From Chrysochromulina tobinii (lineage: Eukaryota): 49,406 bases of DNA. Every line of letters begins with the position of its first letter. The stretch's first letter is position 1. Below are positions 16,178 through 38,761 of this stretch, in pieces. Below the pieces are notes generated by a model. It was given only the letters and a program-made list of their open reading frames with translations, was not told where the DNA came from and did not search any database. The translations under genes were made by a program, and so were the position numbers. The stretch covers positions 1 through 49,406 of the forward strand of contig JWZX01003226.1 in the NCBI GenBank assembly GCA_001275005.1. Direction: 5' to 3'.

Positions 16178-16446
16178 CGCGCCGCTCGCTCGCTCGCTCG
16201 CTCGCGCCGCCTCCCGGCTACCGGGTACCCGGAGAGACCGTGCCTCAACCCCGCGATGAAGTTTGCGCAAGTTTAGAAACGGTCGGGAAAAATAAGAATT
16301 TGGCTTCAGCGTCGTTGTTTACACCAGCAGACCGCTCCCACATGAACATCTGTGAACATTCTCCCGACACGCCGTTGCGTCCACCAGTCGACCCCTTCGC
16401 GAACGCTGACGAGCCACTTGCCGCACCTCCTCAGCGCCAACGTAAA

Positions 16447-19400
16447 ATGGCCGAGAAGAAGCCTGGCTTCGATCCTGCCGCGTACTTCGAGAAGATGTTC
16501 CGGAAGTTCGAACACACCGCCGCATCGGGCTCGCCGGAGCTCCAGGCCACGGTCACTTCCTCGCTGCTCGAGCTGCTCTCGACCTACCGGCTCAAGCTGC
16601 AGCTTGGCGTGTACCAGGAGCGACTCGTGCAGTCGGGCCGGATCATCGCGTCGCTTGGCGACTATGAGCTCGCGCTCAGCGAGTGCTTCGCGCCGATCCT
16701 CGGCACAGCCGAACTCGAGGCCAAGGGGATGGGCGCCATTCGGCTGCGCGTGCTCGCCGAGTTTGGCTCCGTCGAGTGCAGCTTCGCGCTGCTCGACGAG
16801 CGCGACCCGTCGGTGGCGCACGCCGCATCGACGGCCACGGTGCGCGAGCTCCTTCGACGCGTGCGCGTGGGGATGGCGTCCTGCGCCAAGCACGAGACGC
16901 TCTACTGGCTGGTGCTCAACGGCACGCGTCTGGCATACAGCATGTGCACCCGGCTAATGCGGCCGGAGCGCGCGGCTGAGGCGATCGAGACGCTCGGCTG
17001 GTGCGCGCTGTGCATGGAGGGCATGCTGCCGCTCCTCGCGCCGCGCTTCCTCATGTGGCGCATCCAGCTCTACGAGGCCCTTTGCCACTGCTACGAGGCG
17101 GTGGGCATGGTGGAGGCGGCGGCCAAGGCGGCCACGCACGCACTCGCGCGGTACACGCAGCTCAAGAACTACGACAAGCACGACCCGGTGCCGCCGACGG
17201 CGGAGATGAACGCGCGCTATGATCGCGCCGAGAAGGCGCTCGGCGCCCTTCGCTTCAAGTACGTGACGTGCCTTGCACCGCCCAAGGGTCCTTCCCCGGA
17301 GGAGTTGGCAGCCGCCGCCGCTCCCGCCAAGGGAAAGCCGCCGGCCAAGGGCGAAGTCCCGCCGCCTCCGCCGGAGAGCGGCCTCGTCGTGGCGCTCAAA
17401 GAGACGGTGGGCGAGGCGCCCACGGCGCAGCTGGTGGCGGTGCTCGAGGCGCTGCACGACTACACGACCAGCGCACGCACTCTCGCGACGGCGCCTCCCT
17501 CCGAGGCGCGCGAGAAGATCGTCTCCGAGCTGCTCGCCAAGGGCATGGAGCTTGCGGCGAGCTCGCTCGCGAAGCTGACCGCACACGAGGAGGCCAAGCT
17601 CGCCCTCGCTCTGGCGAACGAGCAGGCGGCGAGCGCGCAGGCGGCGGCGACGACGGCGCAGGCGGCGGCCGAGGCGGAGGCGGCCGCAGCGCCACTGGCA
17701 GAGGGCGCGCCACCCTCGCCCGTCGCGGCCGCGGCCGCCGAGGCGCAGGCGCAGGCGCAGGCGTCTGCGGCGGCGCTCGAGGGTTTGCAGGCGGCCGAGG
17801 CGGCGGCGGCCGCGGAGGCTGCGGCCGCGACACAGGCTCTACCGCTGCCCATGCACGTACGGCTCCTGTGCGCCGCCTTCAAGAACCAAAAGTGGGACGA
17901 GGTGAGCATGCTCGCTGATGAGCGCTGATTACCGCTGATTACCGCTGATGAGTGCTGATGGCGTTGCATGCAGGTGAGCATGCTCCTGCCGGCAGCGCAG
18001 GCGCGTGTTGACCGTGCGTGCCCCGAGGCCGCGGCCGCGGCCGACCGGAGCGCGGCGGCGGTGGGCGGGGCGACGCTGGGGCGCACGATGCCGATCGCTC
18101 CTCCGCCGCCTCCGCAGGCGGTGAGCGCCACCACCTCCGTCACCTTCGCTGCCGACCATTCCAAGCTGACCTTTGCCCAGGACGGCGCCACTCTCGAGGT
18201 GCACGAAGGCGCAGGGGAGGCCGCGTCGACGGCGGCCGCAGCGGCGGCGGCCGCGGAGGGGGTGCCCGACGCGGCCATGGCTGCCATCCTGTGGCTCGAC
18301 GTTCACGTACTCGCCGCCTATCGTGCCATCGACGAGGCCGATGAGGCCGCCCGCTACGATGCGATGGCCGCCCTCGCCACGCTGCTCGATCTTAGCGCCA
18401 CGTCAGGCGTGGTGAGCGGCGCGGCCGCGGCGCGCAAGGACCTCCTCGCCGACGCGGCACTACGCCTCTGGACCCTGTCGGCTCCTGCGCTCGTGGCCGC
18501 CGACATCGATGCATGCACCCAGCCCGACACGGCGGCCACACAGCGGCAGCGCTCGATGGGCGGCGCGGCGGCGGCGGGGGATGGCAAGCTGCGGCTGGTG
18601 CTCAAACCCAAGACGGCGGTGGACGCGCAGAAGCTCGCCGAGCAGCTCGCACGTATGAACAAGGTCGATGCCTCCTTCAGCTTCGTCGTGGCCGATGCCC
18701 CCAAGGGCAAGAGCGCAGGCGGCGCACCCATCACCATCTCGGGTGCGGGCGAGCTCGCCGTGCTCTCTGTGGCGGACAAGGCGCGCAAGGAGTCGGGCGC
18801 GCAGTGCACCCAAGGGCCGCTCCTCTCAAAATCGCAGACCGCCGCCGCCGCGACGGCCGCGACCTCCACGGCGGCGCTCTCCCGCACGACCGGTGCCGGC
18901 GCCAACGGCGACGGCGCGACGCCGTTGACTCGCATGACGCCGGCACAGCTGGTGAGCGTGCTGCGGCCGGTGCACGTGACGCTTCGCCAGGTGGATGCGA
19001 CGGATGCGCAGCTGCGCGCCACGATCGCACTCCGGCTCACCAGCGTGCTCCTCGACCTGGCGAAGCCCGACCCTGCCGTCGCTGTTGCGCGCGCCGCTCT
19101 CGCCGACCTTGAGGCTGCGCGCTCGGCGGCGGTCGTGCAGATGGCGTGGAGAGGTCTGCAAGGCGCACCCTCCGCGTCGGCGACGAGCGTGCTGCAGCCG
19201 GCGGATGGGCCGGCGCCCTTTTACACGCCCACGGACCTGCTCCTCCAAACCCTCGGCTGCCAGCATGCGGACTTGCTGCTCCTCCTGTTCCGCGCGGAGC
19301 TGCAGTCGGGCATGCGCAAAGCCATCAAGCAGGCGAAGGTCGAGTTCGACACCTTGCGCGCGGCGCAGCTGCGTCGGCGGCAGCAGCAGCACATCTACGG

Positions 19401-22400
19401 CGTCAAGAGCCGGCAGGACCTGATGCGAGAGGCGGAGGAGGACGCAGCGAGCGCGGCGGTCCCCACGACGGCGCCCGCCACCGAGACGAAGCTGCTCGGC
19501 GAGTTCGGGCACGACAATAGCGCCAAGGCGCTGCTGCTGCTCGAGATCGCGTGCTACCACGAGCAGGCGGAGCGCGAGGGGCTGCTGCAGCAGGCGGCGG
19601 ACGCACTCCTGGCTGCGCAGGCGGACGAGTACAGCTGCGCTGCCGCCGCCTCGTCGGACATTTCGCGGCTCGCACGCGCCTCCTCGGCGTCCTCGAGCGC
19701 CTCCCTCTCGAGCGGCCCGCGCCCCCCCGCCGTGCCCAAGCCCCCACAGCTCGTGTACCGCACCCACGAGGCCATCTGCGTGCGTGTGCGCCCGTTTTAC
19801 CCGTCGCGTGGCCCGGTGGGACCAGGCGGTGTCGTCGCTCCGGCGCCGGTGCCGTCCAAGTTCGCCGTGTATGCCAAGGAGGCGGGCGTCGGTGTGGCCG
19901 TCTCGCTCAACAACAAGGAGCTGCCTGGCACCGGCCGGCCGCGTGCGCCCCGTGTGGGCATCGACGCGTTCGATCCGCTCGCCGACTGCTTCGTCATTCG
20001 CGGCCTGCCGCACGGGAAGCCGATCGTCATCGCGGCGGCCGCCTTCGACGCGGCAGGCGACGTCATTGGGGGGATCGGGGACATGACGAGTGAGATCGTG
20101 ACGGCGCTCCCGCTGCCTCGCACCCTGCTCTGGGCCTATTTTGCACGGCACGCGTACCAACTCGGCGCGCCGAAGCTCGCGCGGCGCGGGCTGAGCGAGG
20201 TGCAGAAGGCGATCCTCGCGATCACTCCGTCGCTCGATCTGTGGCAACAGAGCCCACTGCAGCGGCTGCGGCTCGTGCAGAAGCATTGCGCGTACCGCGC
20301 GGCCGCCGAGCTGCGCGCCGCGGCGCAGGCGCTGCTGCTCGCGCCCGCGCTGCGCGCCGCGCTCGGCGGCGTCATCGTCGCTGGCAGCCGCTCGGCTTCG
20401 GCCGTGGCGGCGCTCGAGCAGTTGCATGAGGCCCAGCAGCTGGTGCTCTCGATGCAGCTCGCGATCACCATCGACGACGCGCCACTCGCGGCGAGCGCCG
20501 TGCAGGCAGTGTATACGGCACTGACGCCACTGCTCAAGCCGCGCCAGCGCACCGTCTTCGTTCTGCAGCCACTCTCGGCCTGCCTCGCCACGCTGCAGCT
20601 CCTTGGGCCTGAGAGGCTGCTCACCATCCAGCGCGCCCCGCAGCTGCTCGCGTGCGTGGGCTTTGAGCTCGCCACCCTGAGCAATGAGTGGGGTCTGCAC
20701 CAGCTCTCATTCAAGGCCGCCGCGCTCGACGTCGCCGGCTTCGCGGCCGCGCTCGCGCTCGCGAACAAGGCCAAGGCCACCCAAGCGGGGTTGGCCGAGG
20801 AGGCGGTGGAGGCGGCAGGGTCGATTGACGAGGCGGATAAGTTCGCGGGCGTGCTCTACGCGGAGTACGTGGCCTCACAGCCGCTGCTCGCGCCGCATGC
20901 AGCGCCGCTCGGCGAGGCGGGCGCTGGTGCGGAGCTCGGCGTCAAGCTGTGGAAAGCTCTCAGCCAGTCAGAGGACGCGACGTGGCAGATGCTCGACTTG
21001 GCCAAAGGAGACACGCGTGCCTTCGAGTTCACAGTGCGCGCGTGCGAGCTGATCCTGAACTCAACGCCTACCGCGGCCAAGGCGACGCTGATCAGCGAGA
21101 AGCTCACGACGGCGCTCGCGCAGGCGGCCGAGGGCGCGCGCTACAAGCAGCTCAGCGAGTTCCTCGCGGAGCGTCCGCTGCCCGACGTCGGGTCGGAGCC
21201 GCCTCCGCCCACCGAGGGACAGACGGCGGAGGAGGCCAAGGACGCATGGGAGCAGAGAAAGTATGGCGCCATCTTTGTGCGTGGGATGAAGGCGCTGTGG
21301 GCGCGCATGCTCGATCGGCGCCAGAAGCGCATCCTGCATTTCCAGCAGCGCCCGTGGCGCGCGCTCGCTCGCACGCTACTCGCGCGCTGTGCGCACTTCA
21401 ACCCTCCGCCGCCACCGCCTCCCGGCATCGGCGAGGACGGAAACCCCTTGCCGGCGCCGGCGCCGCCGCCCGAGGGCGCGCATGTGCTCAAGGAGCTTGC
21501 ACGCGGCGCCGTGATCGCGGAGCGCGCCGAGTGCCCTGCGATGCTGCTGCACACGTGCGCGCAGCTGCGCAACTTTTTCGACCTGCTGCCCGCCGCCGTC
21601 GAGTGCACGCTCGCGTACGGCCGGTTCGAGGCGATGCCTCGTGCCTCCCAGGCCGACCCGCCCGACCCGCCGCCCGCCATCGTGCCCGCTCTGTGGAAGC
21701 CGCTCGCGCGTGCCTCGCAGGCGCTTCTGTCGCTCCTCGGCCAGCTGCACGGGGGGCTCCCTCTCGGCGGACGGGACCCCTTTGCTCTTGCGCTGGCAGG
21801 CACCTCCGCCGCGGAACTCGCCGTCACTGCCGAGACCGACGTGCGGCGCGGCGCTGGCGTGAGCGAGGAGGATGTGTCCACGCACGTCAAGGGACCGAAG
21901 CGCTGGTTCGAGACGCGCGATACAGCGTATGACGTGGAGCCCCTCAATCTCGACTGGATCTGCGACTTTGTGCACCTGACGCTGCGCCAGCTCCAGCTCG
22001 CGCGCCGTTGGCGGCTAATGGCTGAGCTCGCCCTCAGCTTTGATGATCTGACCGAGGGCACGTACGGCACCCGCATGCTCCCGTTCCTGGAGCAGGCGCA
22101 GCAGAAGCTGCATGCCACCAAGTGGGCCGATGGCAACGCTCTGCCGCAGGTCGCCAAGCGCGTCGCCGAGCTGGTGCGCGATCAGAGCGCGTGCGTCCAG
22201 GCCATCGAGGCGTGTCGCAAGGCCGTGCACGCACTGTGCACGCCCGGCGGCGGCGTGGGCAACGGGTTCAGCCTCGATGGCAGCGGCACGGTGGCTGAGA
22301 AGCGCTCGGCGGCGCTCGAGCGGGCGCACCACCTATGCAAGGAAAGTGCGACCCTCTGCCGCTCGCGTCGCGAGACCACCATGCTGATCGAGTCTCTAGG

Positions 22401-25400
22401 GACGCTCGGCTCGCTGCAGCTCGAGGATGGCAAGGTGAGTCGGGCGGCCGAGGCGTGGAATATGGCCCTCGACGACATCTTCAACACGCAGGACGTGACG
22501 AAGCTCTGGCAGGGCCTCTTTGCGCCGACGGCGCCGCCGCTTCCCGCCAAGTACTCGTTGGCCGAGATGGGTCGCGCGCTCGCGGTGCTCGGTGGGCTTG
22601 CTCGCCATACGACGTCCCATCGATTGGAGCGTCGGCTGCAGCACGCCCTCTTCGCGTCGCACCTGTGCGTGTCCATCACGTCCACGTCGATCACGCACCC
22701 GTCGCGTCTCATCGACTGGGCCGGCTACCGGCTGACCGAGCTGCCCGCGGGCACGCTCGATGCCAAGGGCGGATGGCCGGATGGCTGCAAAGGTATGGTC
22801 GTGCAGCTTGAGCTCCTCGACGGGCTGCATGCGCTCGCTACGACGCTCCTTCAGTACGAGCTACCGCTGCGCGCGCTGCCGATCCTCGCGATCCTCAAGC
22901 ATCTGGCCACCGACGTGGCGCGTGACGTGACGCATTCGGTCGGCGCCGATGCGCTCATGCTCATGGCCCTCACGGCCCTTGGCCAGCTCGATCACGCAAG
23001 CGTGCTGCTCGCCAATGCGCTCGCGGGCGCCGACCTGCCGCGCGATGCGCTGGAGCTCCTCCCCCCCCCGCCTCCCACCGAGGGCGCTGCGCCGCCGCCG
23101 CTCAAGGTGCCGCCCGCGCCGCCGCGATTCTTGGTCCACCTGACGCCCGAGAGCGCTGAGAATGCTCCCGCAGTGCGTGTGATGCTCGAGGCGACGGCTG
23201 CGCCCACCGTGGTGTCACAGTGCGATCCCGCCGTGCTCAAGCTTCTCAGCCTCGCGCGTGCCGCGCTGCTGCTGCGCCTCACCGAGCGTGTGTCGCCCGC
23301 CGCGGTCGCGGACATCGCGGCCAAGGCCGGCGGCGCCGCCGCGGACGCTGCTGCTGCTGCGGCGGCCGCGGCCGCCGCGCCGCCTGCCAAGGGAGGCAAG
23401 CCGCCGGCGAAGGGCGAGCCGCCGCCTCCCGAGCCCGTGGCGGCCGGTGTTGGGGCGGCGGACATTCTGCGCGCGGTTGAGCTGCTGCTCGACAGCGTAG
23501 CCGCGCCGTCGGCGCCGCGCGCCGACGGCGCGCCGCCGAGCGCGGCGGAGCTCGCGGCGACCTTTGCACTGCGGTGCGACGAGGCCATGCTCCGTTCGAC
23601 GCTCGCTCTGCGGCGGGGGCTGCCAGCGGACGCGATCGCGCCACTCAAAGAGGCTATGAGTGGCGCGGTGCCCGCTTTGCCGTGGGGCAACGACGGCGAG
23701 GGCGGCGGCGGCGGGAAGGTGGGGCTGCTACTTCCGTCACTGCAGCCGGGCGCGCTGCACTGGCTGCGACTGCGCGCGGCGCTGGCGACCGTCTGCCTGC
23801 AGCAGGGGCAACTCAAGGCGGCGCTCGAGCAGATCGACACGGGGCGCACCGAGGCCAACCGCGCGCACGACAAGCGGGTGCTGCGCCAGCTGCTCCTCGT
23901 GCACGCGCGCGTGAAGCTCGCAAATGGCGAGCTGCCAGCGGCCGCCGATGCGCTCAAGCTCTGGCTCGAAGACGCGTCGAGCGCCACCGCCGCCGACGCC
24001 GTGACCGTCGCGGGCGCCTCCATGCAGTACGCGGGCGCGATGCTCGCACTCAGCGCCGCCTTTGGCGGCGTGGGGGGCGGCGCGGGCGCTGCCAAGATCA
24101 TCGCGTTGCTCCGTGGTGCCGAAGCGACCCTGCGCGCGGAGTCCGAGGCGCTCGGCATGGTCTCTTCCGAGCAATGGCCATGCCTGGTTCAGCCGACGCC
24201 CGGGGCGCAGGGGCCCTCCTCGCCCGTCCACGTGGGTGCGCTCGACAACCTGTACCTGCGCCCACTCCAGCCACTCGTCGAGGCGAAGCTCAAGCTCGCT
24301 GTAGGGCTGCAGCTGACGAGTGCGGCGCCGGCGGGGATGGCTGCACACGCAGCCACGGACGCGTCGGTTCAACTGCTCACCGAAGCGGCTGCGCTGCTCA
24401 AGCGCACGCTGCATCCGCGCCCCACGCTCATCGCGAACGTGCATGCGGAGCTCGGTCGCGCTTTCGTCACCCAGTCGCTGCGCGCGGCGGTTGGCCCATG
24501 GGGCGGCGCCACGACTCTCAATGACGCTACGGCGGCCGCGGCCGAGGCGGCGGCTGCGGGTGCCGCGCGGCCCTCGACGCCAGCCGAGCAGTGGGGTCCT
24601 GACGGACGGCGCGTGCCGCCGCCCGTGCCGCCGCTGCCCGTGCGCGCAGAGGCAGCGCTCCGCACAGCGCTGGTCACGCTCGATTCGTGCGAGCAAGTGG
24701 AGCCCGCCCTCGTGCAACGCATCGCCCTCGAACTCGCACGTCTGCACGGCGCGGGCCTCGTGCCCGGCACCGAGCTCGAGCGAGAGTGGGTCGCCACGTG
24801 GGTGCCCGTGCCGCGCTCGCTCGAGCTCGGTGCCGCCTATGTGCGCCGCGCGGCGCTCTGCGGCGTCGGCCGGCGCGCCGTATACGCCGAGCTGCTCGCC
24901 CTCACGCCCTCGCCGCCCCTCGACGCGGCGGTGCCCCTGCCCAAGCCCCTCGCGGACGAAGCGGTGCAGGCCGCGTCGCTCGCCGCTGACCGGCCCAACA
25001 CGATGCCTGACTCGCGCGACGAGGGCAAGTCGGCGCGGGACCTGTTCGGCCTCGCTGCGGCGCTCAATAGGACGCGTGAGCTGCCCCACGTCGACCAGGA
25101 CGCCGTCGAGCGCAAGCAGCTGCTGCTCCATGGGTTCCTCAAAAAGGCATGCAAGCCGTTTGCGGACGCGCTCGTGCCGGCCGCGCCGCCGCCGGCGGCC
25201 GAGCTCAAGCTCGAAGTACCCGCGGGCCTCGCCACGTTTCAGTGGTATGATGCGACGCCCACGTTTGGTGGCGTGGTGGTCGAGAGCACCCTCACCCTCT
25301 TCTATGTGCTCGGCCATGGTGGCGAAGGTGCCTTTATGCTGGGCACGCTGGTGCTGCCGCGCGCGGGCGTGCTCGCCACAGCGCGGCTCCTCCAGCGGCA

Positions 25401-25779
25401 TCTGCTCGCCGCGGGCGCGGAGGCGGCCGTGGCAGCTGCGGCCGCCGCGGCGGCCCCTCCACCAGCCAAGGGAGGCAAAGGAGCACCACCTCCTGAAGAG
25501 CCCAAGCCGCCGCCCAAGCTCGATTGGCTCATCGAGTGCACCGACGCCGTCAAGGAGCTGCTGCAGCCGCCCGCGACGGCGCCGCCCGAGGAGACGCCGC
25601 CGCCCGCGGACGACGAGGAGGACGCCGAGCCTCCGCCCCCGCCGGTGGACTATGCCGCGGCGGTCGGCCCGGGCGCACTCGAAACGCTCGCCACCCTCTT
25701 CGACCCGCTCACGGGCGGCACCATGACCGATCCGGCCGTGTGCGCCTGGCTCGCGTCGCTGCTCGTCAGCAAAAAGTGA
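16447..25779 (+). CDS. CFAP54: Cilia- and flagella-associated protein 54 (central pair C1d), two exons with intron 17902-17973
   Basis: N-terminal DUF4486-like motif LYWLVLNGTRLAYSMC...LGWCALCMEGMLPLLAPRFLMWRIQLYEALCHCY; removing the 72-nt intron joins the 562-aa and 2603-aa ORFs in frame (~3090 aa); later AAFDAAGDVIGGIG...IVTALPLP segment also fits the family. Confidence 0.88.
17902..17973 (+). other. 72-nt spliceosomal intron with internal GCTGAT repeats and a duplicated junction
   Basis: GAG|GTGAGC...TGCAG|GTG; contains in-frame stops; removal restores the reading frame. Confidence 0.9.
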
Positions 25780-29479: not shown

Positions 29480-29747
29480 TTTTCACGTCGGTGATCGTGA
29501 AGAGATGAGAAATCATGAACTGGCGCGCATGTTTAGGGCGCGCGTGTTGTAGTCACATGTTTCGAACTTGAATCCGCGGGATATTCACGAACACAATTTG
29601 CAAGCACTTCGCCCTTCGTGCAGTCCTCGCGCTAGGAATGGAGCATCTCTTTCCGTCGAAGGAGGGATTCCCGCTGCAGTATTAGTGCCGGCCGACCTGT
29701 GTGCGGCCGGGAGGCGCGCCGCCCCCGCGCGTTGTTCCAGAAGAAGA

Positions 29748-32456
29748 ATGGTGCTGCGCCGCACCGCACGATGTTCCAGAGAATTTGCAGCCACGAGCGC
29801 GACAGAGATTCCATCGGAGAAGAAGAACAACGGGCTCTATCTCTTTCGCGACAGCTCGAGCATCGAGCCGCCAGCTGCTGCTTACGAGCCAGACCGCCGC
29901 GACAAGCTCGACTTCAACATCTACGCGGAGGTTGCCAACCCGAAGTTCATCGTATGCCCCGATGACATCTGGATGCCGAAGATGGAGGATATGGGCTGGC
30001 ATCTCAGTGCACTTGACGCAGATCAAATGCACTGAGATTGAGCTTTACGTGGAGCGCCTCAAACAAAGCACCGTGCGCGTTCTCGACCATGGCGCCACGC
30101 TCTTTGTGGTCTTCGTCGGGACCTTCTGGACCCTTTTCGCCGAGGACGTTGCGCACGGATGGCCACTTGACAAGACGGTGGACACTCCGTTTGCCTGGGC
30201 CTCTCTCTTCTTCCTCATCTTGTTCGTCGCCGAGCAGGCGACGCGCTCCATCGTGCAGCGCGAGGACTACTTGTTCAGCTTATTCTGGTGGATGGAGCTC
30301 GTGCGCGTTCGAGGCTCGAATGCGTACCCTCGCAGCGCACGAGCCGGGGCAAGGCCACCGAAGCGGCCGCCCCTCCCCGCCTTTCCCACAGAGACCCCGC
30401 TAGTCTCCTTAGCCATTGCTCACGCGCGCGTCGCACGGCACTCGTGTGCCCAGTTTGCAAACGCCTCCATGGTCTTGATGCTCGGACCGATCCTGGCTCC
30501 TGAGGGCGAGCACAGGTGCTCGGTCAAGTTTGGGCTCAGCGCCCTCGGAGTCGTGGCTGGCTCGATCACGATCGCGCGCGTGAGCAGGATCGCGCGCGTG
30601 CTGCGCCTGCTGCGCGTCTTCAGCGCAGCAAGGGAAGCAGCCAATCAAGCACCCCGCCGTCGTACAGTGAAACAGTCCGCGATCGGCAGGGCACTCAACG
30701 ACAAGCTCGTGCAGTCGATGGCCGTGATCGTCGTGGCGCTACAACTCATCTTCCCTTTGCTCAGCTTCCAGGAGAAGAACTCCGCGCGGGAGCTCGCCTT
30801 CGAAATCCTCACCATGGGCGGCAACGTCTCGAAGTCCGAGGGCACTTCGTACGGCGCTGCGATGCTCGAGCGCTACCAATTTGCTGGCCATCATGAGCTC
30901 GTGCTCTCGACAGAACAGGGGTTGAGATATGCTCGCAGCTACGCCACCCTCCTCAAGATCGTCTTCTCGTCCGAGGCGTTCGTATACATCAACGACCAAC
31001 CGGCAGCGAGCTACCCGGGGTGGGATGGCAACACTTACAACGCCGCGGACTGCCTGAACCTGAACGCGGAGGACACGTTCGCAGCGTGCCCCCAAGCGAT
31101 TCACGAGCTTCGGTGCTCGGAGATCCAATTCTTCCACCCAGAGAAGGGCGTGCACGAGGCCTACTGGGAGGTTCAAGAGCTGCGGATGGCGCAGGCACAG
31201 GGTAGTGCCGCGATCACCATCCTGCTCTTGGTCGCCATCCTCGTCATGTTCACGTCCCTCTCCGCTGACGTGGCGTCCATGGTGGTAGAGCCAATCGAGG
31301 GCATGGTCAAGCTCGTCAAGGCGCTCGCGGAGAATCCCAGCTGTAAGCTCGAGGAGCAGGCCAAGTCCAAATACGAAACAGAGGCCGTGCGCATCGCTCT
31401 CGCCAAGATCGTCGGCCTGATGCAGCTCGGGTTTGGCGGTGCCGGCCACGAGCTCATCTCAGCCAACCTAGCCAACTCTGAACAGGCAACGCTCGACTTA
31501 ACGCTTCGAGGCAAGAAGAGGGATTGCGCGTACGGCTATTGCGACATCCGCCAGTTCACCGAAACGGTGGAGTGCTTGCAGGATCAGGTGATGCTCTTCC
31601 GGTGATTGCGATTGCCATGCGGGGATGCTCACCAGGTGATTGCGAGTGCCATCAGGTGATGCTCTTCACCAACGCCGTCGGTGAGATCGTCCACCAGAGC
31701 TGCTACGACAACCACGGCGAGCCCAACAAGAATATCGGCGACGCCTTCCTGATCGTCTGGCGCTCCATGCTGTCCACCGACTACGGCAAGGTGGTCGACG
31801 GTGCATTGACATCCTTCCGCCGATGCGTGCGCGAAATAGCCTCGTCATTGACACTGCAGCTCGTGACCGATGTGGAAGCGATGCACAATAAGTTCGGGCG
31901 CGGCGTGTACCAAACCAAGCTCGGCTTCGGCCTCCACTTTGGTTGGTCGGTGGAGGGCCCCGTTGGCACGACGACCAAGATCGACTGCTCGTACCTCTCG
32001 CCCGAGGTGAAGATCTCGGACCGCCTCGAAGCGGCCACCAAGATCTACTCCTCCAACATCCTCATGAGTGGCCAGTTTTACGACCTGCTCTCGGACAACA
32101 TCAAGGTGGGCGTTCGCCTGATCGACTACGTGACGCTCAAGCACTGCAAAAAGCCCTTCCGCATCTACGCCGACGACCGCTCCAACCTGTGGCTCCAGAT
32201 GAATGCACGTCTCGTTGAGATCCACGGCGCCGAGGCAGCGTACGAGCTGTTCTCGAAGACCTTCCACGAGGGCATCGACGCCTTCATCAAGGGCGACTGG
32301 CCGACGGCGCAGCAAAAGCTTGAAAGCGCGCGTGACTTCTGCCCAATGGACGCGCCCACGCTGCTGCTGCTGAAGGAGATGAAGACGCGCTCTCTCGATC
32401 CGGTGACGCCGACTGCGCCCCTCGACTGGAAGGGCTACCACGAGTCCGAAGTCTGA
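29748..32456 (+). CDS. Ion-channel-type class III adenylyl cyclase (alveolate AC-alpha-like): voltage-sensor-like TM region, cyclase domain, C-terminal TPR-like helix
   Basis: S4-like IARVSRIARVLRLLRVF; GYCDIRQFTETVECLQ; NKNIGDAFLIVW; GFGLHFGWSVEGPVG...KIDCSYLSP...RLEAATKIY. Predicted phase-0 introns 29952-30021, 30301-30453 and 31588-31655 join three ORF-track segments in frame. Confidence 0.88.
31588..31655 (+). other. 68-nt spliceosomal intron with a duplicated junction
   Basis: CAG|GTGATG...ATCAG|GTGATG; removal joins CLQDQ to VMLFTNAVGEIVH. Confidence 0.9.
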
Positions 32457-32735
32457 TGTGTTTGTGTTGGGCACACCAGCGCCTAGATCCGATAAAGTAG
32501 CTACTAGCCGTGATTTTGGATACATTGTGCTAGCTTAAATTTTGTAGATGTAACTACTAAGTTTTGTAAGTACGTACATACGTTTGTTGCATGGCCTGTC
32601 CCGGCAATCACGTGCTACGGTATCATCTATCAATGTGTCCGGAGTCCGCGCGGTTCCGGGTTCGTCCATGGGTCGTCGTCACCTTTCGACAGTTTCGAGA
32701 TCGACAGTTTCTGACGGGTGCGAAACCGGCATAAT

Positions 32736-34451: not shown

Positions 34452-35053
34452 GAAGTCAGGGAGCGTGCCAGCGGAGTGGGGCAGTGTGGGCCCCTCTGTG
34501 CAAGATTACTGTAAATGGAAATTCCGGATTCCTTGATCGGTGTCTATCCGTCAGCTGCGACACGAGCAAGCGTGTGTACACTATCGAAGGTCACTGCCGG
34601 TGCGGCACTGTCAGTCGGTTTCTTACGCTTGATCTTACGTCTCAATCTTGGTCTCTTCCGGTCACTGTAACGCCGCGCGACATGGCACATGTGCCCTTTC
34701 ATGCGCGCTTTGGATGCGTTCTACGCGCGACGCGACGCACGCGGCACGCACGCGCGAGCTGAATAAGCCCTTCGCCACTTACGGAGCAATCGTTTCGATC
34801 AGGGATTTCGATTTTAGTCCCTAGTTCTCTCCTGTGACACGGGTGAAATACATCTGTCGACCGGCGTTTGTGACGTTCGTGTGTCTGTCTCGTGTGTCCG
34901 GCTCCCCCCGTTGTTTTCGAACCGGAGCGCCGGCAAAGGAGCGTGTTTCGGTGTCATGGAACCTGCCGGAACGGCGCGCGGACGTTGGGACCTCGCACGG
35001 CGATCATACGGACCGGCCAGCCGAGCGGGTGGTTCGTGTTCCAACCGGCCCGC

Positions 35054-37924
35054 ATGGCAGACGCTGGCGCTGCGGCGGAGCCAGCACCTCCCGAACCGGC
35101 TGACACGGCAGCTCCTGACGCTCCAGCCGAGGCAGCTCCATCCCAAGCCAGTGATGAGGCTCCGCCAGCGAGTGCCAGTGATGAGGCGCCGCCTGCGGGT
35201 GACGATGCTGCGCCTCAGCGCCGTGAGGCACCTGTTCTCGAAGGGACGGTCCTTTCCCCCAGCGAGGAGGCAGAAGCCGCACCTGACTTGGAAAAGGCGC
35301 CTGAGGAAGAGGCGGAAGACGGAAGTTCGAACGCAAAGTGGACGGTGTTCAGCGTGAAGGAGACGCAGCGTGAGTGCAAAGCGCTTTTCGTACCCGATGG
35401 CAGGCGCCTCAACACCCAGGACCTGCAGGTTCTTCTCGCCGAAAACTGGAACGACGAGACTCCCAACTTTCTGGTGAGTGCAGACGCAGGTACCATTCAT
35501 CCCAAGGACTTTGCGACCCCAGCGCTCAGGGATCAAGTGCATGCCTTCGAAAAGTTCAGGAGATGGGGAGAGCTTCACGGGGAGCTTCGTGGTATCGAGA
35601 AGGGCAGCAAGAAGATGGAGGACTTTTCACTCAAAGTGATCAATGACGTCATCTTCCTCAGACTCACCACTGTATTCGTCTCCGTGCTCGAGCAAGCCGT
35701 GATCGCTCCGAATTTCATCGTTGTCGACCGCGTGTCGGCGAAGTCGCCGTCCGCTGAGCTAATCCTTGAGATAGCGCTGCAGAAAGTTCGTGACCTACCC
35801 AAGGTGCTCTGCATCGACGCCTTTTCGCGCCTCAAGCAATTCAAGGGCCAGAGCGGTACAGGCCCCATCGACCCAGTCACCCAGACATGCATCGACACTA
35901 TGAGGAAAATCCAAAAGACTGGTGTGAACCTCGGGTCCGACGACGAGCCAAAGGATAAAGAAGACATCATGCAATTCTATGACCTTGCTGAGTATTCAGA
36001 TCCATACGCTGACTTCTTTATGAACAGTCCGCTCCCGCGCAAGCCCGAAGCCGTCCATGTGCAGGCCGATGGAACGGTCCAAAGGCGCAGCAAGTGGCAG
36101 TATCACTACCTGAAGACATTCTGGGGTGGCGCAAACCGTTATATCCTGCTCGATGTTGCGCACGACGCCCCTGACCTATCGGGCCTCGGCGAGTATGGCT
36201 TCATCCATGCGAATGGGCAGGACATGATGTTTGACCGCTTCAAGTCGCGCGTTCAGCAGGGCTACAAAATGGTGATGCTGCACAACACGGGCGGCCTAAC
36301 ACAGGCTTTCGCTGCGATTCGCGCCGCGATGCTATCGCAAGTGACGTGCCCGACGCCCAACGAGATTCTCAACCTGATAAAAAACGATGCGACCGTCTCG
36401 AACAACGCGTGGAGGCATAAGTTTGGCCTGCCTGAGATTCACATGATGATGGAGCTCAACCAGCGCGCGCCGATGATCTTGCGCGATACCATCTTGGCCG
36501 TCGATGTGATGAATGATCCGTCGGACCGCGTACTAGACACCATGGCGGTGGTCTTCAACGCGGGCGGCGGCGTCCCAGAGCTTGGACTCGGCATGGCGGA
36601 GCAGCTGTGCATCCTTACGGCGTGGAAGCGCCACCTGACGCTCTACGAGAATGCCATCAAATTCGAGCAGATTGCAGATGCGATCCAACTCTTCACGTAC
36701 TGCAATGCAATCCTAACCACGGTCCTGGCCGTCCTCTATGCCCTGGAGACAGCAAGCTCGGACCTTGCTGCCGCGCTTGCCGCGCTGACACCCGTGCTCG
36801 ACACGATCCAGAATGATGAGCTGAGCAGCGGCGCCTTAGACGGCGTCGTCGAAGGGGCAGTTACTGAGGAGGTTAACCCGCTCAAGGGCCTGGCTGCGCT
36901 TGAAATGACAATGGTGCTGCTACCCATCATCTCTGCACTGCTCAACGCCATTCGTAGCAAGATGCGCCCGCGCGAGAAATGGGCGACGTGCTATATGGCG
37001 GCATTCCAGATCGTCAATCAGATCTACGATTACCGCCTTCGCACGAATGCTTACGACCCGACACCACCGCCGCCCAAAGAAGGTGAGGAACCACCACCAG
37101 AAATCTCACCGAAGAAGCGCGCGGTCATGATGCGTCAACTGTTTGTGGAAACCTGCAAGGCGATCTACACAGCGGCCATAAGCACCGAGGTGGCCAAAGG
37201 CGGATCGCTGCAGATGGGCCAAAAAGGTGGGATGGACCTCGAGAACGACAAAGCTTCGTTCATTGAAGCCCTCAACGAGCACAATCAGATTGTCATCCTG
37301 GGCGTATCGAAGTCCAAGAAGCCCAAGAAATCGAAGGTGACCCCAGCGCCTCCCGAAGAGGAGGAACCAGACTACGATGAGAATGCAGTCCAAGAAAAGA
37401 TCTCGAAAAAAGACGATAAAAAGCGCGCCAAAGACGAGGAGGGGCCTTCGTCGATGTACGTCGACAACCTGTACTCGCAGTTGGACGTCGAGAGCTACAT
37501 GCACTGTCGGCTGAGGCCGTTGACGGCGTTCTTTGAGAGGCGTGCCCCGACACTGAGCAATCGAGCCACCTACATGGAGGGGGTAGCAATCGCTGCCAAT
37601 ACTGTTGGTGCGCTCCTCGCCGTGACGGGTGGCGCCGAATTTATCGCGATCTCCGTAGCAGTGGCCTCTGTTGCCATGGCACTCCAGGACTACTTTTACT
37701 TGCCAAGCCAGACCAACATTGCGAATTCGGTGCTCTCTGAATGCCACAACTTGATCCTTCACTGGGATTCGCTCTCACTCGTCCAGCGCAAGACCAGAAG
37801 GACTCGGAGCTTGGTCTGTACCACGTGCGAGCAGTCGTACTTGTCGCTCGTCTCAGCGCGAACGGCCATCTCCGCAAAGCTGCCGACAGAGGATAAGAAA
37901 GCAGAGGAAGGCGAGGACAACTAA
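35054..37924 (+). CDS. SLOG (TRPM N-terminal/LSDAT-like) domain fused to two SLATT (DUF4231-like and SLATT_1-like) 2TM domains
   Basis: LLAENWNDETPNFLVSADAG resembles TRPM W-x-L-x-x-P-x-LLISVxGG; ANRYILLD and MVMLHNTGGLTQAFA match SLOG strands; AWKRHLTLYENA...LLPIISALL...PREKWATCYMAAFQIVNQIYDYRLRTNAY (DUF4231-like); YMHCRLRPLTAFFERRA...LILHWDSLSLVQR...LVCTTCE (SLATT_1-like). Confidence 0.7.
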   Translation: MADAGAAAEPAPPEPADTAAPDAPAEAAPSQASDEAPPASASDEAPPAGDDAAPQRREAPVLEGTVLSPSEEAEAAPDLEKAPEEEAEDGSSNAKWTVFSVKETQRECKALFVPDGRRLNTQDLQVLLAENWNDETPNFLVSADAGTIHPKDFATPALRDQVHAFEKFRRWGELHGELRGIEKGSKKMEDFSLKVINDVIFLRLTTVFVSVLEQAVIAPNFIVVDRVSAKSPSAELILEIALQKVRDLPKVLCIDAFSRLKQFKGQSGTGPIDPVTQTCIDTMRKIQKTGVNLGSDDEPKDKEDIMQFYDLAEYSDPYADFFMNSPLPRKPEAVHVQADGTVQRRSKWQYHYLKTFWGGANRYILLDVAHDAPDLSGLGEYGFIHANGQDMMFDRFKSRVQQGYKMVMLHNTGGLTQAFAAIRAAMLSQVTCPTPNEILNLIKNDATVSNNAWRHKFGLPEIHMMMELNQRAPMILRDTILAVDVMNDPSDRVLDTMAVVFNAGGGVPELGLGMAEQLCILTAWKRHLTLYENAIKFEQIADAIQLFTYCNAILTTVLAVLYALETASSDLAAALAALTPVLDTIQNDELSSGALDGVVEGAVTEEVNPLKGLAALEMTMVLLPIISALLNAIRSKMRPREKWATCYMAAFQIVNQIYDYRLRTNAYDPTPPPPKEGEEPPPEISPKKRAVMMRQLFVETCKAIYTAAISTEVAKGGSLQMGQKGGMDLENDKASFIEALNEHNQIVILGVSKSKKPKKSKVTPAPPEEEEPDYDENAVQEKISKKDDKKRAKDEEGPSSMYVDNLYSQLDVESYMHCRLRPLTAFFERRAPTLSNRATYMEGVAIAANTVGALLAVTGGAEFIAISVAVASVAMALQDYFYLPSQTNIANSVLSECHNLILHWDSLSLVQRKTRRTRSLVCTTCEQSYLSLVSARTAISAKLPTEDKKAEEGEDN

Positions 37925-38761
37925 ATGCAGTCAGCGCCAGGAGGGCATGAGTGGTACGGTAATGCACTTAGTACTCGACGCACATATGAGATATGTGGCG
38001 TCCATATCGCCGCATGGAGTGAGTCACATACTCATCAGAGGCGTCTCTCGTCTGGACACTCGGTACGGACCCAGGGGACGTCGCGCGGACTGCGGACCCG
38101 GACCGGACGCGCGGGACGCTTGAGCTTACACGAAACTGGGTCGTCCGGTCCATCGTGCGCCGTCGCGAAAAATTACCGACTCGGTTGTACACGACAGGTT
38201 TTCACTCGGCTCTCGGCGCATGGCGCTGCTCTCGGGCCGCGCCGGTCACGTCAAAGACCAGCACAGTACACACATAGATCATAGTAGTCGAGCTTGAGTA
38301 CACAGCTCGTAGGTGCCCGGATCCGATTCACCATACCCCGGCCCGCCTCCGTAGATGTGCGCGCACCTGCGGTGCTGCGCGCAGCACGCTCAGCTGCCAC
38401 TGCATGGCCATGCCGCATGCACACTAGCGACTAGCCAACACGCGTCGTCGGCTCGTCGCTGGTTCCATCTGTCCTTATTCCTGTTCAGTTCGCCTGCTGG
38501 CTGCTCCGGAATATCGGAGTCCCAAGATCTCGTGGCGACGTGACATGGCCACAGCCATGGACGACGACGACGACGAAGGCCATGGCGACGACGAAGGCCA
38601 TGGTCATTCCTTGTGCTTGTCCCGGGAAACCTCCTCGTCGAGTGCATGAGGCTCCGCGTGTGCACCCTAGTTCGGCCGGCCCACCGCTAGCGTCGTCCGT
38701 GTGCGCACGGACGACCGCAGCATACGCAGCAGCTCCCGCCTCGCTGATGCCCCCTGCGCGC

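Follow-up and report, generated by a model that had tools for sequence, protein, structure and literature searches.

The SLOG and SLATT domains were reportedly defined computationally by Burroughs et al. in 2015. Bacterial proteins that fuse a SLOG domain to SLATT modules have been predicted for years, and we found no experiment on them. In one source, the bacterial type has been given the name of a TRPM-family/SLATT conflict effector, and SLATT effectors are described as predicted or thought to form pores. Here we analyze a gene of this kind from the alga Chrysochromulina tobinii, located at positions 35054 to 37924 (+ strand) of contig JWZX01003226.1; the whole 49,406-nucleotide stretch analyzed is referred to below as the window. 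An earlier reading of the letters alone (the original prediction) proposed that this is an intronless gene of low GC content for a SLOG sensor followed by two different SLATT modules, that it acts as a nucleotide-gated immune or cell-death effector, and that it might link bacterial systems to TRPM channels. We conclude that the observation is real, that the gene is expressed, and that it was correctly described. The architecture is the known bacterial one, because its modules match their positional counterparts in LSDAT_prok-DUF4231-SLATT_1 proteins. By sequence comparison, the undescribed part would be an old, diversified eukaryotic branch whose named members come from a haptophyte, dinoflagellates, and a prasinophyte. 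No paper on algal SLOG-SLATT fusions was listed in the literature searches, though the 2015 study may already list eukaryotic members.

A TRPM-type SLOG domain joined to two SLATT modules

Pfam did not detect LSDAT in the 956-residue protein, none of 45 long relatives passed the LSDAT gathering cut-off, and only 1 of 21 close relatives gave an LSDAT_prok match (E 0.091). A search of the PDB with the single sequence returned nothing relevant, as did a 21-sequence profile. With a 41-sequence family profile, human TRPM2 MHR1/2 was matched in three collinear stretches (E 1.6e-6), and TRPM5 and TRPM8 were also matched in collinear stretches; the LOG-family structure 1rcu reached an E value of only 0.31. 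An AlphaFold2 model (mean predicted local distance difference test [pLDDT] score 76.5, predicted template modeling score 0.66) was compared with known structures. Among the matches listed, both Foldseek and VIA-align gave TRPM chains exclusively, with TRPM3 best in VIA-align (Z 19.9, root mean square deviation 4.2, 299 residues aligned) and human TRPM2 at Z 18.4. Similarity of 0.82 to 0.84 to LSDAT clusters in the Atlas is a lead only. By profile and predicted structure, the N-terminal region is thus a SLOG fold of the TRPM MHR1/2 (LSDAT) type, as had been proposed. The bounds first given for it, 35430 to 36320, were too narrow, and the domain extends over approximately 35324 to 36577 (residues 91 to 508). 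The features of the gene are as follows (TM, transmembrane helix; ORF, open reading frame).

35054 to 37924, + strand: single-exon gene for SLOG, SLATT-A, and SLATT-B, 956 residues (ORF, unspliced RNA contigs, ORFs at loci L018 and L019)
35032 to 38658, + strand: stretch under single RNA contigs, the approximate transcript
35054 to 35323, + strand: acidic, Ala/Pro-rich N-terminal tail, residues 1 to 90, predicted disordered (pLDDT <50) and unconserved in the alignment
35324 to 36577, + strand: predicted TRPM MHR1/2-like (LSDAT) SLOG domain with insertions, residues ~91 to 508 (family profile, AlphaFold2 model, Foldseek, VIA-align)
35483 to 35503, + strand: loop after core strand 1 (D144, G146, H149, P150; 91 to 97% in the near set defined below), aligned with TRPM2 T174-K178 (profile alignment, conservation)
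35726 to 35758, + strand: loop after core strand 2 (D225/R226, 59/59; S231; E235), in place of the bacterial Gly-Gly...Met motif (alignment, conservation)
36209 to 36295, + strand: ends of the last two core strands (G388, N411, T/S412, G413, G414), with G414 aligned to TRPM2 R358 (profile, model, conservation)
36569 to 36592, + strand: conserved Gly-rich hinge from SLOG to the first membrane module, residues 506 to 513 (E509 86%, G511 96%, pLDDT dip at 504 to 508)
36593 to 37054, + strand: SLATT-A (DUF4231/SLATT_3-like), residues 514 to 667, with TM1 ~543 to 564, a variable loop at 578 to 612, and TM2 ~610 to 634 (Pfam, hydrophobicity, model, 99.5% to the first bacterial module)
37196 to 37453, + strand: charged, variable linker, residues 715 to 800, of which 755 to 800 are predicted disordered (alignment, model)
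37460 to 37864, + strand: SLATT-B (SLATT_1-like), residues 803 to 937, with TM3 ~843 to 858, TM4 ~861 to 881, and C-terminal helices (Pfam, NCBIfam, model, 99.6% to the second bacterial module)

The membrane part has four hydrophobic helices arranged as two pairs, not six. In this protein, the Pfam matches lie below their cut-offs: DUF4231 covers residues 574 to 670 (E 2.3e-4; score 22 against 24.7) and SLATT_1 covers residues 815 to 874 (E 4.7e-3; 17.4 against 26.3), and the NCBIfam SLATT_1 score is 20.7 against a cut-off of 41. Among the 21 relatives, 17 match DUF4231 and 16 match SLATT_1 at an E value of ≤0.1, and some relatives reach the curated cut-offs for SLATT_1 or DUF4231. Many cytosolic polar residues of the SLATT modules are conserved, and a long helix predicted at residues 513 to 584 contains TM1. 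These matches in the relatives, together with the >99% probabilities against bacterial modules, bear out the assignment of the helix pairs to SLATT. The two modules show no detectable internal repeat and a mutual profile-profile probability of 5%, in agreement with the proposal that they differ from one another. The absence of a six-helix channel was likewise confirmed, with four SLATT-type helices and no Ion_trans match. A two-copy complex prediction for residues 505 to 945, run without an alignment, scored 0.00 and counts neither way.

Homology with bacterial fusions and the relation to TRPM channels

A tblastn search of plasmids with a distant family member retrieved two bacterial fusion proteins that carry LSDAT_prok, DUF4231, and SLATT_1 well above the cut-offs; the same search with the 956-residue protein itself gave no match. 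The algal profile matched one of these bacterial fusions collinearly over 513 columns (99.7%, E 1e-26). Module by module, SLATT-A and SLATT-B matched their positional counterparts at 99.5% and 99.6%, with crosswise values of 4 to 14%. Because each module matches only its own bacterial counterpart, the two-module arrangement was inherited as a unit. The SLOG part matched the bacterial SLOG over 46 columns only (74.7%), and overall identity is ~18% to the bacterial relatives, compared to 28 to 51% to algal-type relatives. The suggested kinship with bacterial SLOG-SLATT fusions is therefore upheld as homology over the full length.

In metagenomes, the bacterial type occurs frequently (465 bacterial-type matches among the scored candidates), and among genomes it is patchy, with 1 of 401 and 2 of 201 sampled genomes positive, the seed genome counted each time. 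Conflict-type genes lie beside some bacterial relatives, encoding TIR-NACHT (locus L002), nSTAND1 (L011), TPR-S and Roc-COR (L005), and Schlafen (L010) proteins; across 13 bacterial loci, Pfam identified a TIR in 1 of the 63 surrounding ORFs that were scanned. On the "Ca. Chlorohelix" plasmid (L002:4702-10925), the SLOG-SLATT gene lies amid toxin-antitoxin genes, ~1.2 kb from a TIR-NACHT-FGE gene. At three Hymenobacter loci (L001:4139-4804, L003:4240-4902, and L011:3976-4944), a GH108 lysozyme gene directly precedes the SLOG-SLATT gene, an adjacency that recalls a holin/endolysin-like pairing.

For the proposed bridge between bacterial systems and TRPM channels, the outcome was mixed. Against the same family profile, human TRPM2 scored 30 bits, whereas the bacterial SLOG segments (the 106 of 121 that could be cut out) scored at most 19.8 bits, with a median of 10.6. 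Of 167 family sequences, many of which are fragmentary, 36 contain a pattern for the W-x-L-x-x-P-N-L segment, compared to 0 of 121 bacterial sequences. The higher TRPM2 score speaks for a link of the algal SLOG to TRPM, which is weakly supported by sequence comparison; it is a hint only, because the bacterial sample represents one subfamily, filters differed between the searches, and the tree described below includes no TRPM sequence. The membrane part is bacterial-like whether or not the SLOG domain is TRPM-linked.

A putative rebuilt ligand cleft

Two reports name Y295, R302, R358, and M215 as the ADP-ribose contacts of human TRPM2 (PMC6759353, PMC13060097). In the sequence alignment, the family profile skips a stretch of 23 residues that includes both Y295 and R302, R358 pairs with a glycine (G414), and the bacterial Met taken as the M215 equivalent pairs with E235 of the algal protein. 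ADP-ribose gating of the TRPM2 kind is therefore not supported so far, since the contact residues are missing. Across 121 bacterial proteins, the R358 position is Gly in 96%, the Met is present in 93%, and W-G-x-E is present in 94 to 96%; the glycine-rich SLOG loops together with W-G-x-E are 89 to 100% conserved there. In the algal set, these elements are replaced or missing, except for the last G-G.

A different set of residues is conserved in the near set, i.e., 60 sequences covering the SLOG domain at ≥27% identity: D144 (91%), G146 (91%), H149 (95%), P150 (97%), D225 and R226 (100%, 59/59), S231 (94%), D255 (90%), R259 (98%), W348 (100%), G388 (98%), N411 (89%), and G413-G414 (98 to 100%), with E235 acidic in 98%. 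In the model, most of these residues are placed at or just past strand ends, the conserved polar ones at the C-terminal ends of the strands of the SLOG sheet. The loop holding D144 and H149 aligns with TRPM2 residues 174 to 178, which we take to be the ligand-clamping loop. Together, the alignment and model suggest that the SLOG cleft was retained but rebuilt. At residue 362 (36137 to 36139), this protein has Arg, compared to the His of a conserved strand motif in 93% of near relatives.

Expression and genomic context

In all three RNA runs examined, one RNA contig covers the whole gene without a joint (35032 to 38190, 35032 to 38624, and 35040 to 38658), in line with the claim that the gene is intronless. 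In the same runs, introns of the upstream gene (30300 to 30454 and 31582 to 31651) were removed by splicing, and positions 34614 to 35014 were uncovered. Given the joint-free contig, the spliced introns upstream, and the uncovered stretch just before the gene, the RNA signal is likely mRNA; the contigs give an approximate transcript whose true ends and strand cannot be read from them. All 14 listed RNA runs (mixed cultures) contain 0.97 of the gene's sampled words. Three PolyA freshwater runs from the same study contain next to none of them and are uninformative. The intronless state is unremarkable here, because neighboring ORFs reach 7.8 kb.

At 0.572, the gene has a lower GC content than any of the other long ORFs measured (15 in all; others, 0.602 to 0.718), so the reported contrast with the neighbors holds. 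Its GC at third codon positions (GC3), 0.693, is also the minimum, yet it is near that of three neighbors (0.698, 0.709, and 0.720). ORFs of identical length occur at loci L018 and L019, and the same 18- to 23-kb context surrounds the gene in two other assemblies. A Pfam scan of 18 of the 52 ORFs listed in the window (17 besides the gene itself) identified ordinary eukaryotic neighbors: a light-harvesting protein, CFAP54, ankyrin, PhyH dioxygenase, GH5 glucanase, BRCT, and chromo-domain proteins.

Upstream, ORFs 29962 to 31605 and 31617 to 32456 form one spliced transcript (29639 to 32530, + strand) that contains the two introns above and has a weak match to a class III nucleotide-cyclase domain (PF00211, E 0.0024) at its end. 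One base at 29993 is absent from all four RNA runs and was probably introduced into the window sequence by misassembly. The cyclase-like gene was set aside as a signal source, because the scanned flanks of other family members contained no cyclase gene. The CFAP54-like gene (16342 to 25779, + strand) consists of two adjoining ORFs (528 and 2,603 residues) separated by 39 bases, which are probably parts of a single gene interrupted by a short intron.

The eukaryotic family

A word-based search gave 21 matches, one being the cluster of the protein itself; the remaining 20 share 28 to 51% identity with the protein. When 1.84 billion cluster representatives were searched with a profile, 348 matched at an E value of ≤1e-30 and 2,429 at ≤0.001, many of them fragments, and the weaker ones may include bacterial SLATT proteins. 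A taxon was attached to 6 of the 30 clusters looked up (two Chrysochromulina; three dinoflagellate, namely, Togula, Pelagodinium, and strain MGD; and one Dolichomastix), though transcriptome labels can include prey; none of the 30 bore a bacterial name. The protein's own 90% cluster includes C. tobinii and C. parva entries. Atlas clusters at a similarity of 0.94 to 0.97 are mostly eukaryotic, with Haptophyta the commonest, and carry SLATT_1 and DUF4231, with LSDAT_prok in 64% of the members of one cluster. Among viral contigs, none of 31 pattern matches was confirmed.

Metagenome contigs yielded 47 family loci, including four paralogue types at GC 0.57 to 0.59, two of which are named from the same species. 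The four types sit at unrelated loci among ordinary neighbors. Homologues on other contigs have GC3 values of 0.88 to 0.95 and GC like that of their own flanks. In a FastTree phylogeny, 39 deeply diversified eukaryote-type rows stand apart from 10 bacterial rows (support 100); long-branch warnings and the narrow bacterial sample mean that the tree names no donor or order of events. In three pairs of family loci (paralogues, not the gene itself), the ratio of nonsynonymous to synonymous substitution rates (dN/dS) was 0.171, 0.115, and 0.102. The paralogues are under purifying selection. Eleven variants of this protein were compared, a reference-length duplicate set included; 8 of the 9 complete or long ones differ at 2 to 6 sites. 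Gene models P0186 and P0188, which are short or end differently, fall outside these nine. The public model P0186, from the protein's own cluster, has only 511 residues (188 to 688 plus a different end), so that the full architecture cannot be recognized from this annotation. EF-hands were found in 3 of 45 long relatives. Among the family members P0037, P0072, P0103, and P0005, EF-hand pairs occur before or after the SLOG domain, and one has a WW domain.

Proposed function and alternative explanations

The reading that we favor, at roughly even chances, is that the protein is a ligand-gated signaling pore domesticated from a bacterial effector. Its cytosolic TRPM-type SLOG domain and four membrane helices would likely assemble into a pore through oligomerization of the SLATT modules, which would enclose an aqueous path. 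The pore would open when a small signaling molecule, probably phosphorylated and perhaps a derivative of NAD or an adenine nucleotide held otherwise than in TRPM2, binds in the SLOG cleft, which may be lined by the conserved polar strand-end residues. R226 perhaps replaces the missing R358/R302 in phosphate binding. Closure of the cleft would then tug the Gly-rich hinge, which leads straight into the TM1-bearing helix. The family may have been taken from bacteria long ago and domesticated, and its likely role in the alga would be routine ion or stress signaling. Routine signaling is favored because RNA was present in 14 of 14 runs, dN/dS is 0.10 to 0.17, variants carry few substitutions, the paralogues have ordinary neighbors, and some relatives carry EF-hands.

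Several points weigh against this reading. An immune function would also be compatible with constitutive RNA and low dN/dS. A single variant has 32 differences, mostly in linkers, and one paralogue pair (L031:10480-12813 versus L033:2204-4588) has a synonymous divergence (dS) of 0.083, compared to 0.005 to 0.033 for four neighbor genes; this pair could represent old balanced alleles or introgression. Among 30 more distant members, D225/R226 drop to ~50%, so the family as a whole does not share the rebuilt pocket. We infer the spatial clustering of the conserved residues from secondary structure alone. The cleft may bind no nucleotide, because the TRPM2 contacts have no counterpart in the alignment and the bacterial W-G-x-E is absent.

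In an immune or cell-death reading along the lines of the original prediction, infection would raise an NAD-derived signal, made by a TIR or similar enzyme encoded elsewhere in the genome, and its binding to SLOG would let the SLATT pore depolarize and kill the cell. According to one report, the type I Thoeris SLOG senses 3'cADPR and type VII effectors are SLATT proteins (10.64898/2025.12.03.692087). In another, a Gephyrocapsa huxleyi SLATT-domain gene, possibly a member of this family, shifts expression during giant-virus infection (10.64898/2026.09.30.755861). The patchy bacterial relatives, some of them beside conflict-type genes, and the elevated dS of one paralogue pair also fit. However, TIR was found in 0 of the 17 other window ORFs scanned and in 0 of 20 ORFs flanking other family members, the single TIR hit near bacterial relatives is sparse, PADLOC gave no match, and paralogue dN/dS is low. 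The missing-TIR results are weak, since eukaryotic partners need not adjoin and the scan covered local ORFs only. With no TIR in the scanned neighbors, purifying selection, and mRNA in culture, an immune role is not supported so far, and we regard it as a minority possibility. Still less probable is a ligand-blind SLOG domain serving for scaffolding or assembly, with opening of the membrane part controlled by voltage, calcium, lipid, or a partner protein. The four TRPM2 contacts are all lost, as are the glycine-rich loops, the SLOG match to bacteria is short where the membrane modules exceed 99%, EF-hand and WW fusions occur among relatives, and several TRPM channels have the same fold without ADP-ribose gating. 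Against this, conservation of 89 to 100% at the strand-end polar residues over the near set exceeds what a scaffold needs.

A membrane-anchored enzyme, with SLOG as a LOG-like nucleotide N-glycosidase or signal degrader and the SLATT helices as a mere anchor, is very unlikely. Some SLOG clades are reported to cleave AMP-type substrates, and the conserved Asp, His, and Arg could be catalytic. However, the closest folds among the matches listed are TRPM sensor domains, 1rcu reached an E value of only 0.31 with the family profile, and the conserved cytosolic polar residues in both SLATT modules exceed an anchor's need. The lowest GC among 15 ORFs and the single exon could also suggest recent horizontal acquisition or bacterial contamination, to which we assign next to no probability. 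The flanking genes are eukaryotic and the 18- to 23-kb context recurs in two assemblies, identity to bacterial relatives is only ~18% against 28 to 51% to algal-type relatives, the tree separates eukaryote-type from bacterial rows, and homologues elsewhere share the GC of their flanks. Recent transfer and contamination were therefore rejected, and the low GC does not point to either.

Of the original interpretation, the SLOG/SLATT architecture stands, having survived both refutation checks named with it, and the TRPM link is weakly supported. The immune role is not supported so far, nor is TRPM2-style ADP-ribose gating. With this conserved and expressed branch, found in haptophytes, dinoflagellates, and a prasinophyte, such fusions become open to experiment in eukaryotes, and specific residues are available as targets for mutation. 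If the gated-pore reading is true, it would add a new channel class to phytoplankton signaling and imply a further ligand; antiviral death, if true, would bear on the viral termination of algal blooms. The TRPM sensor domain in eukaryotes would also work on a different membrane module. A broader proposal is doubtful, namely, a TRP-independent class of nucleotide-gated channels in microalgae (a TRPM sensor on a SLATT pore) that answers a second messenger set by D144/H149/D225/R226, mediates antiviral or stress cell death of bloom-forming algae, and stands close to the stage before SLOG joined a six-helix channel.

Comparison with known systems

Thoeris type I (ThsA, SIR2-SLOG, 3'cADPR) and type VII (ThsH, SLATT, canonical cADPR), as described in the source cited above, share a nucleotide sensor-effector logic and, in type VII, a SLATT membrane effector. 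In contrast, the algal protein has no SIR2 domain, no nearby TIR gene was found, PADLOC gave no match, and the ThsA chain is absent from the Foldseek and VIA-align matches listed. TRPM MHR1/2 (LSDAT_euk, PF18139) has the same predicted fold (Z 18 to 20); features common to both include an N-terminal hairpin and the W-x-L-x-x-P-N-L segment. However, the algal protein lacks MHR3/4, a six-helix channel, a TRP box, and NUDT9-H and has four SLATT-type helices instead. TRPM2, the ADP-ribose-gated member, has the Y295/R302 loop and R358; the algal protein lacks the loop and has Gly for R358.

The bacterial fusions, exemplified by WP_243803067.1 (Hymenobacter tibetensis) and WP_341472297.1 ("Ca. Chlorohelix"), differ from the algal protein in that its SLOG domain is ~150 residues longer and has D-A-G-x-x-H-P and D-R in place of the bacterial G-G-A, G-G-T...V-M, and W-G-x-E motifs. 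The algal protein also has long charged linkers and is encoded by a nuclear gene with paralogues rather than in an operon. Nevertheless, the algal protein and the fusions of LSDAT_prok (PF18171), DUF4231 (PF14015), and SLATT_1 (PF18181) have the same modules in the same order, with end-to-end homology.

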